Source: Alicyclobacillus sp.
GTDB taxonomy: Bacteria; Bacillota; Bacilli; Alicyclobacillales; Alicyclobacillaceae
NCBI RefSeq assembly: GCF_023511815.1
Contig: NZ_JAIMAV010000002.1
Span: 7,352 to 71,351 of the forward strand
Direction: 5' to 3'
Length of the DNA: 64,000 nt
Under the pieces are notes generated by a model. That model was not told the origin of the DNA. It searched no databases and saw nothing but the letters and a program-made list of their open reading frames with translations. A program made the translations under genes and the position numbers. This document shows positions 4,663 through 45,409 of the stretch, in pieces (the first letter of the stretch is position 1; each line of letters begins with the position of its first letter).

Positions 4663-5259
4663 TTGGCGGAACACTTGAGCCTGTGGGTATCTCAGTACGG
4701 TATTGTGGCCATCTTCGTACTGATGACACTGGAAAGCGCATGTATCCCCATCCCGAGCGAGGCGGTCGTCCCGTACGCCGGATACCTCGCCTACAACCAT
4801 CAGTTGTCCTTCACCGGTGCCGTCCTCACCGCCACCGCCGCCAACGTCGTCGGCGGGTGGATCGCCTATCTGGTCGGGGCGCGCGGCGGCCGGCCGCTCA
4901 TCCTGCGCTACGGGCGCTACATTCTGCTGAGCGAACGCCACCTGAAGCAGGCGGAGCGTTGGTTCGAGCGCCACGGAGAATGGACGGTGTTCTTCGGCAG
5001 AATGTTACCGGCGCTGCGGACGTTCATCTCGCTGCCCGCCGGCATCGGGCGCATGAACCCCGTCCGGTTCACCCTGTACTCCGCCCTCGGTTCTCTCCCG
5101 TGGAACTTCGCCCTCGCCTGGGCCGGATGGCAGCTGGGCAAACACTGGGAGGCCGTCGGGACATACCTGAAGCCCCTTACATGGTTCGGGGCGGCGGTGC
5201 TGGTTGTTGGGGTGGTCTGGTTCTGGTTCGGCCAACGCCGGCGCCGGCGCGCGGGGTGA
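4663..5259 (+). CDS. DedA family membrane protein
   Basis: LESACIPIPSE and FFGRMLPALRTFISLPAG motifs. TTG at 4663 preceded by AAGGAGGA. An ATG at 4612 is an alternative start. Confidence 0.85.
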   Translation: MAEHLSLWVSQYGIVAIFVLMTLESACIPIPSEAVVPYAGYLAYNHQLSFTGAVLTATAANVVGGWIAYLVGARGGRPLILRYGRYILLSERHLKQAERWFERHGEWTVFFGRMLPALRTFISLPAGIGRMNPVRFTLYSALGSLPWNFALAWAGWQLGKHWEAVGTYLKPLTWFGAAVLVVGVVWFWFGQRRRRRAG

Positions 5260-6718: not shown

Positions 6719-7072
6719 TTACTCGCAGGACCCGGGCTGACCGGCCTGCGTCGCGGTGCGAAAACTCGATCCACATCCGCACGTGCTCACGGCGTTCGGG
6801 TTGAGGATGCGAAATCCCTGCCCCGTGATGTCGTCGACGTAATCCACCTCCGAGCCGTCGATGAGGCTCAGGGACTCCGGGTCGACCACCACCAGGACGC
6901 CCTTCAACTCGTAACGGTGGTCCCCCTCCTTGGGGGCGTCGAGCGCCATCCCGTAGCTGAACCCCGTGCAACCGCCCGGCTTGACATACAACCGGAGCGC
7001 GCGCTCGTCCTCGCCGCGCCCATCCATCATCTCGCGCAGTTTGCTGGCCGCGCTGTCGGTCAAGGTCACCAT
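6719..7072 (-). CDS. HesB/IscA family iron-sulfur cluster insertion protein
   Basis: RLYVKPGGCTGFSYG and C-terminal STCGCGSSF motifs. AAAGGAGGGG RBS before the ATG at 7072. Confidence 0.9.
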   Translation of the reverse strand: MVTLTDSAASKLREMMDGRGEDERALRLYVKPGGCTGFSYGMALDAPKEGDHRYELKGVLVVVDPESLSLIDGSEVDYVDDITGQGFRILNPNAVSTCGCGSSFRTATQAGQPGSCE

Positions 7073-7156
7073 CGGAACCCCTCCTTTCACACCGATTATA
7101 CGCCAACCGCGGACACGACGGCGCCTGCTTTATACGCCACCGCCGGCACTGTGCGC

Positions 7157-7633
7157 CTACTGTCGCCCCGCCAGCTCGCGAACCACCGCCAGCACGGCCG
7201 CCGCGTGGCCCTCCACCCTCACCTTGGGAAACACCGCGGCGATGGTCCCGTCCGGGCCAACGACGTAGGTGGTTCGTTCAATGCCAAGGCTGGTTTTTCC
7301 GAACATCGACTTCTCCTTGAGGACGTCGAAAGCTCGGCACATCGCCCCGTCCACGTCCGCCAACAGGGGCATGTTGAGATCGTTTTTCTCCGCAAATTTC
7401 TTGTGCGAAGCCACCGAATCCCGCGAGACGCCGTACACGACGGCGCCGACCTCCGCGAACGCGCCCATGTGATCGCGAAAGTCCCTGGCCTCGTTCGTTC
7501 ACCCAGGGGTGCTGTCCTTCGGGTAGAAGAAAAGAACCGACACCTTCCCCAACAGATCCTCCCGAGTCACCGTCTCGCCGGTGTGAGACTCGACGGAGAA
7601 CTCGGGCACCGCGGCACCCACATCCAGGGGCAC
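7157..7633 (-). CDS. bcp: Bcp-type peroxiredoxin with in-frame TGA (7499-7501) at the peroxidatic-Cys position, codon 45; candidate selenoprotein (alternative: pseudogene or sequencing error)
   Basis: Track ORFs 7499-7870 and 7157-7468 share one frame. The joined product reads VLFFYPKDSTPG-[TGA]-TNEARDFRDHMGAFAEVGAVVYGVS..., matching the Bcp FYPKxxTPGCTxEAxxFRD motif. GTG at 7633 is preceded by GAAGGAGGG. Confidence 0.7.
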
Positions 7634-7754
7634 GGGAATCCCTCCTTCGGCTCGGCGCGCCGACACCGCACCGACCCCCGCCGCGGGCCACCCGGGACGC
7701 CGGTATCTTTCGCGAACGGGCGGTGCGTACGGGGTGTCCGCGGGCGGGCTGGCC

Positions 7755-9209
7755 TCACTCGCGGACGACCTTGATGGTGCGGATCTCCGGATCGTCCGGT
7801 CCTTGCACCGGCAGGCCGGCGCGCAGGTTTTCTTCAATATAATCCAAGTTGTCCTTGGAAACCACCTCACCCGGCAACAGGATGGGAATGCCGGGAGGAT
7901 AGACCATGATCATCTCCGCGATGGTGCGCCCGACCGATTCGTGGAAAGGCACCGACTCCGTCTTGGCGTAAAACGCCTCGCGCGGTGACATCCGAAGTTC
8001 GGGCATCGACGGCACCTTGACCTGCACCGTGCGCTTCCCGATCTGATCCTTGTACGCGGCCGAGATCTTCACCAGGGCGTCCACCAGGCGGAGAATGTCC
8101 TCCCGTTCATCGCCCCAGGAGATCACGCACAGGATGTTGTACAGGTCGCTCAGCTCGACCTCGATGTTGAACTCCTCGCGCAGCATCACCTCGACGTCGT
8201 ATCCGCGGATGCCGAGGTCCTTGACGGAGATGATGAGCTTCGTCGGATCCAGCGCAAACGTGGCGCTGTTGCGCAGAATCTCCTTTCCCGGACAGTACAG
8301 GCCGGGAATCTGGTTGATGCGGCGCCTCGCCTCGTCGGCAAGCCGGATGGCTTTCTCCATGCGTTCACGCCCGTGAAGGGCCAGCTCCTTGCGCGCGGCG
8401 TCCAGCGACGCGAGCAGGAGGTACGAGGTCGAGGTGGTGGTCAACATGCTCATGACCACCTGGACGTGGCGCGGATCGATCCGGCCGCGGCGGACGTTGA
8501 GGACACTCGACTGCGTCATCGATCCGCCGAGTTTATGCACGCTCGTCGCCGCCATGTCGGCCCCCGCCTGCATGGCCGACACCGGCAGGTCCTCGTGAAA
8601 CGCGGTGTGAATGCCGTGCGCCTCATCCACGAGAACGGGCACGTCGTATCGGTGCGCGATCTCGACGATCCGCCGCAGGTCGGCCGCCACCCCGAAGTAG
8701 GTGGGATTGATCACCACCAGCGCCCGGGCGTCCGGGTGCTGAATCAGGGCGTCCTCCACCGTCTCGACCGACAGGCCGTGCATGATCCCCAGTTCCGTGT
8801 CCACCTCGGGATGCAGAAACACCGGATGGGCGCCGGAGAGCATGATGGCCGCCAGGACCGACTTGTGCACGTTGCGCGGCACCAGGATCTTCTCCCCGGG
8901 GCCCACGGTGGCCAGCACCATCGCCATGATGGCGGTGCTGGTGCCCTGCACGGAGAAAAAGGTTTCATCCGCCCCGAAGGCCTCCGCGGCCAACGCCTGG
9001 GCCTCCTTGATGATGCCCGTGGGATTGTGCAGGTCGTCGAGCGGCGCGATGTTGATGAGATCGATGGACAGCGCGTTCTCCCCGATGAACGATTGAAACG
9101 CGGAATGCATCCCGCGGCCGCGCTTGTGCGCCGGGATGTGAAATTGGATCGGATTGCGTTTCGCATGCGCCAACAGGGCGCTGAACAGGGGTGTGTCTTG
9201 TTGGTTCAA
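7755..9209 (-). CDS. speA: Arginine decarboxylase (Orn/Lys/Arg decarboxylase family, PLP-dependent)
   Basis: Near-colinear with remembered B. subtilis SpeA (QFHIPxHKxG, FIGENALSIDLINI, FFSVQGTS, ATSVHKLGGS, LTTTSTSYLLLASLD). TTG start at 9209 with GGGAGGAG RBS. Confidence 0.9.
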   Translation of the reverse strand: MNQQDTPLFSALLAHAKRNPIQFHIPAHKRGRGMHSAFQSFIGENALSIDLINIAPLDDLHNPTGIIKEAQALAAEAFGADETFFSVQGTSTAIMAMVLATVGPGEKILVPRNVHKSVLAAIMLSGAHPVFLHPEVDTELGIMHGLSVETVEDALIQHPDARALVVINPTYFGVAADLRRIVEIAHRYDVPVLVDEAHGIHTAFHEDLPVSAMQAGADMAATSVHKLGGSMTQSSVLNVRRGRIDPRHVQVVMSMLTTTSTSYLLLASLDAARKELALHGRERMEKAIRLADEARRRINQIPGLYCPGKEILRNSATFALDPTKLIISVKDLGIRGYDVEVMLREEFNIEVELSDLYNILCVISWGDEREDILRLVDALVKISAAYKDQIGKRTVQVKVPSMPELRMSPREAFYAKTESVPFHESVGRTIAEMIMVYPPGIPILLPGEVVSKDNLDYIEENLRAGLPVQGPDDPEIRTIKVVRE

Positions 9210-23363: not shown

Positions 23364-23726
23364 TCAGCGCCGTGGTACCACCCCAACCGTGCAGCGCGAG
23401 ACGCAGACGAGGCGTCCCTCCTCGTCGCAGATGCGGATATCCCACACCATGGTCGTGCGCCCCTTGTGCAGCGGGGTGGCCGTCGCCGTCACCACGCCAT
23501 CTTTTTTCGAGCGGACGTGATTCGCGTTGATTTCAATCCCGACCGCCGCCTGGCGCTCCTGGTCGATGTTCAGCCAGGTGCCGATGCTGGCCGCCGTCTC
23601 CGCCAACGCCACCGACGCCCCGCCGTGCAGCAGACCGAACGGTTGATGCGTCGGACCGGCCACCGGCATGCGCATCACCACCTTGTCCTTGTCCAACTCC
23701 ACCGTCTCAATGCCGAGGGCCTCCAT
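23364..23726 (-). CDS. PaaI-family hotdog-fold thioesterase
   Basis: QPFGLLHGGASVALAET motif. ATG overlaps the upstream stop (TGATG). Confidence 0.85.
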   Translation of the reverse strand: MEALGIETVELDKDKVVMRMPVAGPTHQPFGLLHGGASVALAETAASIGTWLNIDQERQAAVGIEINANHVRSKKDGVVTATATPLHKGRTTMVWDIRICDEEGRLVCVSRCTVGVVPRR

Positions 23727-24520
23727 CAGCGTGTCAGCCAACTGCGGATCTCCTCCTCGTCCATCCAGGCGAGCGAATCGACCGTCCGCCCGGAGGGGAT
23801 GTATTCCAAGCCAACCATTCCATCGTATCCCATTCGACCGAGAGCGGCGAGCACATTCGCATAGTGAATCTCGCCGGTGCCCGGTTCGTGCCTGCCCGGG
23901 TTGTCCGCAATCTGAACGTGTCCCACGAACCGCTCCACGGCCCGGAAGGTCGCCAGCAACTCTCCCTGGCTTCGCTGCACGTGGTAAAAATCGAATTGCA
24001 ACCGGACGTTGTCGCGCCCGACCGCCTCCAGCAGCGCGACGGCCCGTCCGATGTTCGGCAGCGCAAACCGGGGCATGTCCATCTCGTTGCAGGCCTCGAC
24101 CATCACGGTGCGTCCGAAGCGCCCCAGGATGTCCGCCGCGTACCGCACCCGCTCCACCAACACCGGCCACACCGCTTCCGGTGCGCTTCCCTCCGGGACA
24201 CGACCCGCCAGGCAGTGAAGTTTCGAACATCCGAGCGCCTCGGCGTACCGCAGCGCTTGCTCGACGCTCTCCTCGAACGCCTGTTGGCGATCCGGGTCAC
24301 AGGCCATCCCGCGGTCACCGGCCGCCCAGTCACCCGGCGGAAGGTTGAAAAGGACCACCTCCACGCCGGCCTCGTGGACCGCGTGCCGGACATCCTCCGG
24401 CGGGTGGTCGTACGGAAACTGAAACTCCACGGCCCGAAACCCCGCCCGGCGCGCCGCCGCGAACCGTTCGAGAAACGGCACCTCCTGAAACATCAGGGAC
24501 AGGTTTGGGACTGCGCGCAC
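23726..24520 (-). CDS. hyi: Hydroxypyruvate isomerase family TIM-barrel protein
   Basis: Colinear with remembered E. coli Hyi (NLSLMF, GFRAVEF.FPYD, LPPGDWAAGDRGMAC, QIADNPGRHEPGTGEI.Y). GTG at 24520 after AAGGAG. Confidence 0.85.
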   Translation of the reverse strand: MRAVPNLSLMFQEVPFLERFAAARRAGFRAVEFQFPYDHPPEDVRHAVHEAGVEVVLFNLPPGDWAAGDRGMACDPDRQQAFEESVEQALRYAEALGCSKLHCLAGRVPEGSAPEAVWPVLVERVRYAADILGRFGRTVMVEACNEMDMPRFALPNIGRAVALLEAVGRDNVRLQFDFYHVQRSQGELLATFRAVERFVGHVQIADNPGRHEPGTGEIHYANVLAALGRMGYDGMVGLEYIPSGRTVDSLAWMDEEEIRSWLTR

Positions 24521-24684
24521 ACCCCTCGCTCCTTTCCACAGCGGGAACAGCCACCCGCCCCCGCGGGTGGCTGCTCTCCTCCCGTGCACCCGTCATCCGG
24601 GCCGATGGGTCCGGCACCCGCATCGGATCGGCCGCGTCTCGCCAAAACCGAACCCGGGTGCCCGGCCCCCCTTTGCCGGATGGC

Positions 24685-41328: not shown

Positions 41329-44300
41329 CTACATGTTCCGCCGGTACTGCCCCCCGACCTCGTACAGCGCGTGGGTGATCTGCCCGAGGCTCGCCACGCG
41401 CACCGTTTCCATCAATTCGGCGAAGATGTTGCCGCCGCTTCGCGCCACCTGCTTGAGACGGGCGAGTGCCGCCGGCGCCTCGGCGGCGTGCGCCGCCTGG
41501 AACGCGCGCAGGTTCCGCAGCTGAAGGTCCTTCTCCTCCTTCGAGGCCCGGGCCAGCTCAATCTTCGGCGGGACGTAGTTCGGATCGAGCGTCTTGGGAT
41601 TGATGAAGGTGTTCACGCCGATGATGGGGAGTTTCCCCGAGTGCTTCAGATGCTCGTAGTACAGCGACTCCTCCTGGATCTTGCTGCGCTGATACTGCGT
41701 CTCCATCGCCCCGAGGACGCCGCCCCGGTCGTTCAGGCGCAGGAACTCCTCCAGGACCGCCTCCTCCACCAGGTCGGTCAGCTCCTCGATGATGAACGAC
41801 CCCTGCAGCGGGTTCTCGTTTTTCGCGAGGCCGAATTCGCGGTTGATGATCATCTGAATCGCCATCGCCCGGCGGACGGACTCCTCGGTCGGCGTCGTGA
41901 TGGCCTCATCGTACGCATTCGTGTGCAGAGAGTTGCAGTTGTCGTAGATGGCGATGAGCGCCTGCAGCGTCGTCCGGATGTCGTTGAAGTCAATCTCCTG
42001 CGCGTGCAGTGAACGGCCCGACGTCTGGATGTGGTACTTCAACTTCTGGCTGCGCTCGTTGCCGCCGTACAGGTGCTTCATCGCCACCGCCCAGATCCGG
42101 CGGGCGACGCGGCCAATCACACTGTACTCTGGGTCCATGCCGTTGCTGAAGAAAAACGACAGGTTCGGCGCGAACTCGTCGATCTTCATCCCGCGGCTGA
42201 GATAGTACTCCACATAGGTGAAGGCGTTGGCCAGGGTGAACGCCAGCTGCGTGATGGGATTCGCCCCCGCCTCCGCAATGTGGTATCCGCTGATGCTCAC
42301 CGAGTAGTAGTTGCGCACCTTGTGATCGATGAAGTACTGCTGGATGTCCCCCATCATCCGCAGGGCAAACTCCGTCGAGAAGATGCACGTGTTCTGGCCC
42401 TGGTCCTCCTTGAGGATGTCCGCCTGAACCGTGCCGCGCACCGTCTGCAGCGTTCGCTCCCGGATGGCGCGGTACTCCTCCTGTGTCGGTTTGCGGCCCG
42501 TCTCCCGTTCAAACTTCTCGACCTGCTGATCGATCGCGGTGTTCAGATACATCGCCAGGATGATGGGCGCGGGCCCGTTGATGGTCATCGAGACGCTGGT
42601 GTTGGGCGCGCAGAGATCGAATCCGGCGTACAGCTTCTTCATGTCGTCGAGCGTGCACACCGACACCCCGCTCTCGCCGACCTTGCCATAGATGTCCGGC
42701 CGTTCGTCCGGGTCCTCCCCGTACAGGGTGACGCTGTCAAACGCGGTGGACAAGCGCTTGGCGGGATCGTTCTGGGAAAGGAAGTGGAACCTCCGATTGG
42801 TGCGCTCCGGCGTCCCCTCCCCCGCGAACTGGCGGCGCGGCTCCTCCTCCGTGCGCTTCAAGGGGAATACGCCGGCGGTGAACGGGAACTCGCCCGGCAC
42901 GTTCTCCTTCATCGACCAGCGCACAATCTCGCCCCAGTCCTGGAACTTCGGCAGCACCACGCGCGGAATGCGCGTGCCCGACAACGACGTGGTGTACAGC
43001 GGCTGGCGGATCTCCTTATCGCGGACCTTCGTCACGAATTCATCGGCCTGGTACCGGCGCACCTTCTCCGGCCACGACTCGAGAAGGCGCCTCGTCTCTG
43101 GGTCGAGCTCGGCCCACGCCTTCTCGCGCAAGGCCTCGAGCGCCCGGCGCGCCGCATCCCGGTCCGCGTCACCGCCCGATCCCGCCGCAGCGACCCCGCT
43201 TTGGGCATCCGCCGCGCCCTCCGTCCGCACCGCTTCCAAGGCGCCCTGCAGCTGGTATGCCCGCCGCGCCTTTTCCGCCTCCTCCTCGACCCGATTTCGG
43301 TACGCGCGCACGGTGCGCACCACGTCGAGAAGATACTGCGACCGCTCGCCCGGGATGATGGCCCGCTTTCGCTCGGACGCATCCGCCACCGGATAGGTGC
43401 TCTCCCAGGCCGTTTTGCAGCGTTCATTGATCACGCGGATGAGCGCTTTGTACAAAACGTCCGTCCCCGGGTCACCGAACTGGCTCGCGATGGTCCCGTA
43501 CACCGGCATCTCTTCCAACGGCCGGTCAAACCAACCGCGGTTGCGCTGCACCTGCTTGCGCACATGGCGCAGGGCGTCCTCGGAACCGCGGCGATCGAAC
43601 TTGTTGATGGCCACCAGATCCGCGTAATCGAGCATGTCAATTTTCTCGAGCTGCGAGGGCGCGCCGAACTCCGCCGTCATCACGTACAGCGACACGTCGG
43701 CCACGGACACGATGTCCGCGTCCCCCTGGCCGATCCCGCTGGTCTCCACCACCACCAGGTCGAACCCGGCCGCCTTGGCGATGTCGATGGCCTCGCGGAT
43801 GGCGCCCGACAGTTCACTGCGCGAGCGCCGCGTCGCGAGGCTGCGCATGTACACGCGCGGATTGTGGATGGCGTTCATCCGGATGCGGTCGCCGAGCAGC
43901 GCTCCACCCGTCTTCTGGCGGGATGGATCAATGGAAAAGATGGCGATCCGCTTTTCCGGGAAATCCTCGAGGAACCGCCGGACCATCTCGTCGGTGAGCG
44001 AAGACTTCCCGGCCCCGCCGGTCCCGGTGATCCCGACGACGGGCACGGGCCGCACCGCCGTCCGGTCGGCCGCCCGCCTCCGGATCTCATCGATCACGCG
44101 CGCATGCAGGCCCTCATCCTCTCCCGGCTGTTCCACGAAAGTCACGAGACGGGCGATGGCGCGGGGATCCGCGTGCTGGAGCGCGGAGAGCGCCTCCTCC
44201 ACCGGCAGCGGGTTCTCCGTTTGTTCGCAGACCCGGACCATGTGATTGATCATCCCCTGCAGGCCCATTCGGCGACCGTCGTCCGGCGAGAAGATCTTGT

Positions 44301-44760
44301 CGACGCCGTAGGCCTCGAGCTCCCGGATCTCCTCCGGGATGATCACGCCGCCGCCGCCCCCGAAGACGCGGATGTGGCCCACGCCGCGCTCGCGCAGGAG
44401 ATCGACCATATATTTGAAGAATTCCATGTGCCCGCCCTGATACGAGCTCACCGCCACACCGTGCGCGTCCTCCTGGATGGCCGCGCTGACAATCTCGTCG
44501 ACGCTGCGGTTGTGCCCGAGGTGGATCACCTCGGCGCCGGTGGACTGAAGGATCCGCCGCATGATGTTGATGGCGGCGTCATGGCCGTCGAACAGGCTCG
44601 ACGCGGTCACGAACCGGACGGGCCGCCGCGGGCGGTGCGGCTCCTTCTCCTGCGTATCTGCCCACGGATTGGCGTCCGTCCGCCCCGGCGCCCTGGCGTC
44701 CGTTTGTGAAGCGCTTTCATCCCGGGTCTGAACCGGCCGTTCGGTCAAATTGGTGGACAT
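41329..44760 (-). CDS. icmF: Fused isobutyryl-CoA mutase IcmF (B12-binding domain + MeaB-like GTPase + mutase barrel)
   Basis: N-terminal [10 protein letters not shown] (B12-binding DxHxxG), central [13 protein letters not shown]-loop, C-terminal methylmalonyl-CoA-mutase-like region. 1143 aa from the ATG at 44760. Confidence 0.92.
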
Positions 44761-44782
44761 GGTGGCCACACTCCCTCTGCAA

Positions 44783-45409
44783 TCATGCGTTGAATCGGGC
44801 TTTGCACGCCTCAAGAAGAATGTCGACCTGTTGTTCGACGAACTCGGTGAACGAAACGTCGTGGAGTCCCCAGCGGCGGAACGCCCACATCTGTCCCATC
44901 ACCACGATGTCGTGGGCGAGCAGCGGGATCTCGCGTTCGTCCGCGCCGATGGACCCGTCGGCCACTCCGGCCCGCAGCAGGTCGGCGAACACGTCCGTGA
45001 TCGCCTGCTCTTCCCGCAGCACCTCGCGCAGATACGGGGAGGGGAGGGACTTGCTCTCCTGATAGATCAGGAGGATGTCCGTCTGCATCCGCTCGATGAC
45101 CCCGTAGAACGCCCGGATGGCCTGCCGCAACCGGCCCGCGCCGGATTCGGCCGGGGACAGGCTCGCCTCCAGCTGTTCTCGCATCGCTCGATGGATGTGC
45201 TGGCAGACGAGAAAGAGGATGTCCTCCTTGCTCTTCACGTACTCGTAGACCGCGCCGTTGGAGAGCCCGCTCTCCCGCGCGATCTCGCGCGTCGTCGTCT
45301 TGTGAAACCCTTTTTCGGTGAACAGCTTCACGGCCGCCTGCACAATCTGCGCCCGCCGCTCCCGGATCCGATCCGGGTCCTTGACGTTGCTCTCAATCGT
45401 GATGGCCAC
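44783..45409 (-). CDS. TetR/AcrR family transcriptional regulator
   Basis: HTH region [36 protein letters not shown]. Ends 22 nt upstream of icmF. Confidence 0.9.

Follow-up and report, generated by a model that had tools for sequence, protein, structure and literature searches.

An Alicyclobacillus bcp/prxQ peroxiredoxin gene with a conserved in-frame TGA at the peroxidatic cysteine codon, very probably encoding a selenocysteine enzyme

A bcp/prxQ peroxiredoxin gene interrupted by a single in-frame TGA lies on the minus strand of a 64,000-nucleotide stretch of Alicyclobacillus sp. DNA (contig NZ_JAIMAV010000002.1; the whole stretch is referred to below as the window, and coordinates without a locus name are those of the window). 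Translation of positions 7157-7633 on the minus strand gave 159 codons with one internal stop, VPLDVGAAVPEFSVESHTGETVTREDLLGKVSVLFFYPKDSTPG*TNEARDFRDHMGAF...GRQ*. The stop is a TGA at codon 45, in the context ...VLFFYPKDSTPG-TGA-TNEARDFRDHMGAF..., and the open reading frames (ORFs) 7499-7870 and 7157-7468 are in the same frame and are both present in the ORF list. The translation and the ORF list confirmed the coordinates, the shared frame, the single TGA and the normal-length Bcp frame described in an earlier, sequence-only reading of this DNA (the original prediction), and the ribosome-binding site that it assigned to the GTG start is present as AAGGAGG. The gene and its features are as follows.

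7157..7633, minus strand: full-length bcp/prxQ gene, 158 codons including the putatively recoded UGA, followed by a TAG stop (translation, Pfam and PDB matches)
7499..7501, minus strand: in-frame TGA, the probable selenocysteine (Sec) codon; codon 45, in the slot of the peroxidatic Cys (Cp)
7641..7647, minus strand: Shine-Dalgarno-like AAGGAGG, 7 nucleotides (nt) upstream of the GTG start at 7631-7633 (read from the sequence)
7430..7498, minus strand: zone of suppressed synonymous substitution, codons +1 to +23, directly 3' of the UGA
7448..7483, minus strand: candidate selenocysteine insertion sequence (SECIS) hairpin (minimum free energy fold, consensus folds and pair counts)
7427..7447, minus strand: second predicted hairpin, with an 8-bp stem and the loop CGUGU, alignment columns 55-75, over the GAVVYGV codons

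The decarboxylase gene upstream of bcp terminates at an ordinary UGA, which indicates that there is no genome-wide reassignment of the code. When the window was scanned for further TGAs flanked in frame by coding-like halves, the hits were adjacent same-frame genes only. A literature search for Alicyclobacillus together with selenocysteine or selenoprotein, or for macrosporangiidus, found nothing on the bcp gene.

With Cys put at the TGA, residues 5-133 of the protein matched the Pfam family AhpC-TSA (PF00578) with E = 7.3e-39 (133 bits against a cutoff of 26), and the best PDB matches were all Bcp/PrxQ proteins, the top one being the Xanthomonas PrxQ (XcPrxQ) entries 5iiz/3gkk with E = 5e-40. 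The same sequence scored below the cutoffs of the NCBIfam equivalogs PrxQ NF053650 (148.7 bits against 260) and PRK09437 NF006960 (127.5 bits against 140), and the Bcp/PrxQ assignment is therefore one at the family level and not at the equivalog level. Judged by these matches, the predicted product is a thioredoxin-fold peroxiredoxin of the Bcp/PrxQ subfamily (AhpC-TSA, COG1225). It also shares 66% identity with the Cys-type thioredoxin-dependent thiol peroxidase of A. acidocaldarius (P0002).

The alignment showed that the TGA coincides with the peroxidatic Cys of FYPKDSTPG-C-T in 5iiz/3gkk, so that the placement of the stop at the catalytic Cys slot in the original prediction was correct. The active-site motif of the window protein reads YPKDSTPG-TGA-T with Thr42 present, and R120 (in GIERTT) aligns with the active-site Arg123 of XcPrxQ. 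The protein thus resembles the Cys-type enzyme in its active-site Thr, Cp slot and Arg, and differs from Cys-type Bcp/PrxQ proteins in that UGA replaces Cys and that neither of the positions of a resolving Cys, at Cp+5 or in helix alpha3, is occupied by Cys. At Cp+5, where E. coli-type proteins have Cys, the residue is Arg50, and Cys84 of XcPrxQ ('NFCAKQ'), the alpha3-type resolving Cys, aligns with Ala81 ('KFAEK'). Ala had been expected at the resolving position; this holds for the alpha3-type position but not for Cp+5, and the lack of a resolving Cys stands. A resolving Cys is not obligatory in Bcp/PrxQ, and 1-Cys Bcp proteins exist. With Arg50 and Ala81 at the canonical resolving positions, the enzyme would work as a 1-Sec peroxidase.

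The codon was then compared among syntenic loci of relatives. A. macrosporangiidus DNA was represented by L082, L083 and L084, which come from three independent sequencing runs, and the further loci with TGA were L085 (metagenome-assembled genome, MAG, GCA_023512275.1), L208 (GCA_021820805.1), L209 (ENA) and L210 (JGI). The results showed that codon 45 is TGA in all of these, which represent at least four other divergent lineages with 58-78% protein identity to the window. L208, L209 and L210 were found by a search with the C-terminal part alone, and their TGA is followed by TKEAC, TKEAS or TKEAV. Cys is encoded at this codon by TGT in L001 and by TGC in A. kakegawensis L002, and the Bcp proteins of A. 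acidocaldarius and A. sendaiensis also have Cys at the TGA position. The orthologue alignment suggested with the original prediction therefore gave TGA in at least five syntenic lineages including the window, and Cys (TGT or TGC) in others. For the C-terminal half, the nearest database protein is a 124-residue fragment annotated in two A. macrosporangiidus genomes, and the gene model in the NCBI assembly GCA_023512275.1 spans the TGA and has 181 residues. The A. macrosporangiidus Bcp ends in a Gly/Ser-rich tail of about 25 residues (SGASGGEAGSGGNGNGAQGPERGV; L082 10300-10375, L085 11980-12054), which is not present in the window protein, L001 or any other relative.

The window gene was compared with its A. 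macrosporangiidus orthologue by the Nei-Gojobori method. The result showed a dN/dS of 0.09 upstream of the TGA (43 codons, 2-44) and 0.04 downstream of it (110 codons, 46-155), in a comparison in which synonymous sites are saturated (pS about 0.73). None of the lineages had another stop or a frameshift, and five lineages align gap-free. Both halves are under strong purifying selection, and the description of them as intact and free of frameshifts holds. Low dN/dS at saturated synonymous sites makes a pseudogene, a sequencing error and a split into two polypeptides each hard to reconcile with the data.

Synonymous substitution is suppressed directly after the UGA. Between the window and A. macrosporangiidus, 3 of 19 same-residue codons differ within codons 46-68, compared with 66 of 117 gene-wide; this is the lowest such stretch in the gene (hypergeometric P = 1e-4, in a post hoc test). 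Among five TGA lineages, the same-residue codon pairs that differ amounted to 62% upstream, 34% in codons +1 to +23 and 65% far downstream, codons +1 to +23 being the lowest of 126 blocks, with a trough of 17% at +16 to +23. This pattern suggests a constraint at the RNA level, probably that of a SECIS.

When each TGA lineage was folded independently, the same hairpin architecture was obtained. Its core is a 7-bp stem between alignment columns 23-29 and 44-50, that is, window 7473-7479 with 7452-7458 or nt +20 to +26 with +41 to +47 after the UGA, and in the window the candidate SECIS stem reaches columns 19-54. Above the core there is a one-nucleotide break followed by a short upper stem (columns 31/33 with 42/40), and in the window the 6-nt loop AUGGGC begins 30 nt after the UGA. 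In a six-sequence alignment, 93.5% of cells were paired, compared with 27-54% in controls with slid partners. A conserved stem-loop after the UGA is thus present in all TGA lineages, but by another pairing than the one first noted: CGAACG can pair with CGUUCG in the window, in competition with the conserved stem, and this pairing is weaker in relatives. No Rfam match was found in window 7380-7540.

At 59 nt from the UGA, the second predicted hairpin is beyond the published SECIS range. Its 18-nt core GGCGCCGTCGTGTACGGC (window 7430-7447, minus strand, codons GAVVYG) is invariant in all six TGA sequences, and it is identical at every synonymous site in L082, L085, L208, L209, L210 and L001, against saturation of synonymous sites elsewhere. 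Near-identity extends to the Cys-type A. kakegawensis L002, implying that this constraint may not be specific to Sec.

Published rules for the bacterial SECIS give a loop of 3-9 nt, a G in the first two loop positions, a spacing of 16-37 nt and a free energy of at most -7.5 kcal/mol (PMC13188914 Fig. 2). These rules were coded strictly and applied to two sets of Bcp genes, 74 distinct metagenomic ones of the TGA type and 59 of the Cys type, all fetched for other reasons, the Cys controls being mostly distant Cys-type Bcp loci from a genome-contig scan with the Bcp protein, among whose listed matches A. macrosporangiidus did not appear. The result showed that 32 of the 74 TGA genes but 1 of the 59 Cys genes passed the scan (Fisher P = 3e-9). 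In the same two sets, the 60 nt after the codon fold more stably in the TGA genes than in the Cys genes (Mann-Whitney P = 4e-6). A. macrosporangiidus and L001 pass with UUCCGC-GAUCACAUG-GCGGAG, at a spacing of 24 and -7.6 kcal/mol.

L001 (JGI 3300076269) is a syntenic locus with TGT at its positions 5131-5133, and its Bcp is 87% identical to that of A. macrosporangiidus, which has TGA. Despite the Cys codon it keeps the downstream hairpin that passes the SECIS scan. Either L001 has recently reverted from Sec to Cys and retains a remnant SECIS, or it is a Cys form that is pre-adapted to conversion. Cys revertants with remnant SECIS elements have been described (Zhang et al., 2006, PMC1794560 Fig. 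4), and L001 is like them in having TGT and keeping the hairpin; it differs in that the change may run from Sec to Cys or from Cys to Sec. In a neighbour-joining tree, which is indicative only (155 residues), TGA and Cys forms were interleaved, and the identities make it clear that L001 nests beside L082. The TGA loci also vary at Cp+5, which is without Cys in the window, A. macrosporangiidus, L209 and L210, whereas L208 (9968-9985) keeps Cys there (U-T-K-E-A-C) and could form a Sec-Cys selenenylsulfide. From these sequences, 1-Sec and Sec/Cys chemistries seem to coexist among close orthologues.

The known selenoprotein closest to the window protein is of the Bcp type, with the reference protein WP_011365628.1, which we take to be a Geobacter protein. 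The two are alike in fold and length (156 and 158 residues), in 43% identity over the full length and in the active site, FYPKDSTPG-U-T, where Sec is the peroxidatic residue. This reference belongs to the family Prx, COG1225 (Bcp), TxxU, which ranks with the commonest selenoprotein families of bacteria (PMC9312934 Table 1), and the sequence of the reference reads ...FYPKDSTPGUTKEANGFRD... (deep-Sep supplement, PMC12013277). Sec-Prx was recorded in 78 organisms, as the seventh most common bacterial selenoprotein family (Peng et al., 2016, PMC5029168 Table S3). Many members of the Sec-Bcp family also have a hairpin after the UGA. The window gene differs in its host, an aerobic thermoacidophilic member of the Alicyclobacillaceae, since the family was first catalogued mostly in anaerobic Deltaproteobacteria and Clostridia, and in having a hairpin without G in the first two loop positions and a protein without a resolving Cys.

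The comparator named in the original prediction was PrxU of Eubacterium (Peptoclostridium) acidaminophilum (Sohling et al., 2001; NCBIfam NF040737), a thioredoxin-dependent peroxiredoxin that likewise has Sec at the peroxidatic position. It stands as an experimentally shown precedent for a Sec-Prx, but it belongs to another peroxiredoxin subfamily with a 233-position model, on which the window protein scored 40.7 bits against a cutoff of 270, and it is not the closest known selenoprotein.

The signature FYPKDxTPG-TGA-T was found in at least 120 metagenome contigs, and among the matches listed the frame was intact for at least 95 codons after the TGA in 75 of 82. Two contigs each carry two different TGA-type Bcp genes a few kb apart (L158, 361-392 and 4128-4159; L163, 2763-2794 and 4340-4371).

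Taken together, the conservation of the TGA, the Cys orthologues, the selection on both halves, the RNA constraint, the hairpin and the identical reference motif support the original reading of the UGA as Sec, and the gene very probably encodes a Sec-containing Bcp/PrxQ, a 1-Sec enzyme made by standard bacterial SelB/SECIS decoding. We infer that translation would start at the GTG at 7633, that the mRNA hairpin 16-50 nt past the UGA would recruit SelB carrying Sec-tRNA(Sec), and that Sec would be inserted at UGA codon 45 in place of termination. The product would have 158 residues and a mass of roughly 17 kDa, with Sec as its peroxidatic residue (motif T-P-G-U). In the proposed 1-Sec catalytic cycle, peroxide would convert the Sec to a selenenic acid, which would be reduced directly by thioredoxin or another thiol.

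A number of results weigh against this interpretation. Neither selA, selB nor selD was found in the 64-kb window, by Pfam on 28 ORFs or by tblastn with E. coli SelA, SelB and SelD, and no real tRNA-Sec was found there with Rfam, even at E <= 10. Likewise, tblastn over 1.9 Mb in total detected no selA, selB or selD in the flanks of the relatives (about 20 kb each), and no tRNA-Sec was found there. SelA homologues detected on plasmids belong to distant taxa. The Sec trait is absent from A. acidocaldarius, A. acidoterrestris, A. herbarius and A. hesperidum (Peng et al., 2016, PMC5029168). For the hairpin, covariation is weak, with one compensatory pair that was equalled by 72 of 500 shuffles, and its support therefore comes from conservation and not from covariation. 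Since the conserved FRD...EFA residues account for part of the stem, a similar one occurs in the Cys-type L001 and L002 too. The fold z-score is only -1.0 to -1.6 in the window (-2.5 in L082), and the window hairpin fails the strict SECIS scan, having no G in loop positions 1-2; Met-Gly-Ala in place of Met-Ala-Glu breaks the small stem with which A. macrosporangiidus and L001 pass. As bSECISearch misses about 13% of known bacterial selenoprotein genes (PMC12013277), this failure is a caveat and not a refutation.

The Sec trait itself is not foreign to the group. Sec-positive Bacillales are many and include A. contaminans, in which SelD, SelA and SelB are present, and A. pohliae, now Effusibacillus, with seven selenoproteins, and about 40% of Sec users are aerobic; A. 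macrosporangiidus lay outside that data set (Peng et al., 2016, PMC5029168). The original prediction had called a Sec-Bcp unusual for an aerobic Bacillales-like genome, which in view of these figures was overstated.

Other explanations of the TGA were weighed against decoding as Sec. It is quite improbable that a nonsense change from TGY to TGA inactivated bcp and left no protein or just a 44-residue peptide. One transversion turns TGT, the codon of the close relative L001, into TGA, no Sec machinery was found in the window or the flanks of the relatives, and Prodigal-type callers split the gene; however, the TGA persists across synonymous-saturated lineages with a dN/dS of 0.04-0.09 in both halves and no added stops or frameshifts, the ten codons from the TGA to the next Met are conserved in frame, and the same signature recurs with intact frames in the metagenome contigs. 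A very recent loss of function confined to the lineage of the window is possible. The origin of the window from a MAG and the single-base difference between TGA and TGT would suit an error of sequencing or assembly, with TGC or TGT as the true codon, but the probability of this is next to nil: the TGA is also present in independent assemblies of various projects, namely Logan SRR4233913, SRR15214113 and SRR15214112, NCBI GCA_023512275.1 and GCA_021820805.1, ENA ERZ27237243 and JGI 3300077723, and both A. macrosporangiidus isolate genomes annotate the C-terminal fragment. Two separate polypeptides, one of 44 residues from the N-terminal part and one of 103 residues from the ATG at 7468, are very unlikely. 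This ATG (Met56) does lie 10 codons past the TGA in both the window and A. macrosporangiidus, yet it is not kept as a start in L209 and L210 (LNQEF) and no ribosome-binding site precedes it; between TGA and Met, the reading frame and the encoded residues are conserved (T-N/K-E-A-x-x-F-R-D), and the C-terminal product would have no peroxidatic residue.

There is also little likelihood that the UGA is read through without Sec, by near-cognate Trp or Cys insertion or by a tRNA-Sec-like tRNA delivering Cys, with no standard Sec biosynthesis. The absence of Sec machinery genes from the window and the flanks of the relatives, the departure of the window hairpin from the canonical bacterial SECIS loop rule and the many Alicyclobacillus species without the Sec trait would fit such read-through. 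Against it, the family is catalogued as a selenoprotein family with the identical TxxU motif, the recoded codon lies in the catalytic Cys slot, as is the hallmark of Sec, two members of the Alicyclobacillaceae possess SelA, SelB and SelD, and the failure of the loop rule is weak evidence at the miss rate given above. It is similarly unlikely that selection keeps the UGA without the canonical selA, selB, selC and selD, through non-Sec read-through or through a divergent recoding by an atypical two-hairpin element; such an element would correspond to the hairpin without a loop G plus the invariant second hairpin 52-72 nt downstream. In a milder version, the Alicyclobacillaceae would use a distinct class of bacterial SECIS.

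The bcp gene lies in the order YwhD, Orn/Lys/Arg-type decarboxylase, bcp, HesB/IscA and HD-domain protein, which is common to the loci of relatives that were compared, and the bcp-hesB pair is kept in all relatives whose loci run past bcp (L208 and L210 were not resolved). In the Alicyclobacillus sp. MAG the flanking proteins, encoded on a 96,473-bp contig, are HesB/IscA MCL6515434.1 and the pyridoxal phosphate (PLP) decarboxylase MCL6515436.1; the one accession number between them suggests a GenBank protein for bcp, which may be MCL6515435.1. The HesB/IscA gene directly downstream of bcp (6719-7072, minus strand) is of the Cys form, and its protein scored below threshold on the NCBIfam model 'IscA_HesB_Se' (65 bits against a cutoff of 85); HesB-like is itself among the commonest bacterial selenoprotein families. 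In the spacer between the two genes (7095-7156, minus strand), TGGCGTATAA occurs as a direct repeat (…GGTGGCGTATAAAGCAGG…GGTTGGCGTATAATCGG…), and its second copy is a TATAAT-like box upstream of hesB.

Elsewhere in the window, ARAGORN called a tRNA-SeC at 24376-24455 (minus strand, anticodon TCA, 80 nt). This is a false positive, which has no Rfam tRNA-Sec match and lies wholly inside ORF 23726-24589, encoding a xylose-isomerase-like TIM-barrel protein (AP_endonuc_2, Pfam E = 1.4e-43), and such a call could mislead searches for selC in this GC-rich genome. At 41329-44898 (minus strand), B12-binding, MeaB-type GTPase and methylmalonyl-CoA-mutase domains are fused in one ORF of about 1189 codons, the architecture of an IcmF-like fused mutase.

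The gene is a further member of a well-known bacterial selenoprotein family, and what is known of selenoproteins is unchanged by it. It should be annotated as one selenoprotein and not as two fragments or a pseudogene; the A. macrosporangiidus isolates now list a 124-residue fragment. The hosts of Sec-Bcp would gain an aerobic, thermoacidophilic, spore-forming lineage. What remains of interest is that the hairpin does not follow the canonical loop rule and that Sec forms are interleaved with Cys forms in closely related lineages. The TGA gene of A. macrosporangiidus and its TGT sister contig with the hairpin would form a natural pair for studying the benefit of Sec in a peroxiredoxin, one that bears on oxidative, hot and acidic conditions.

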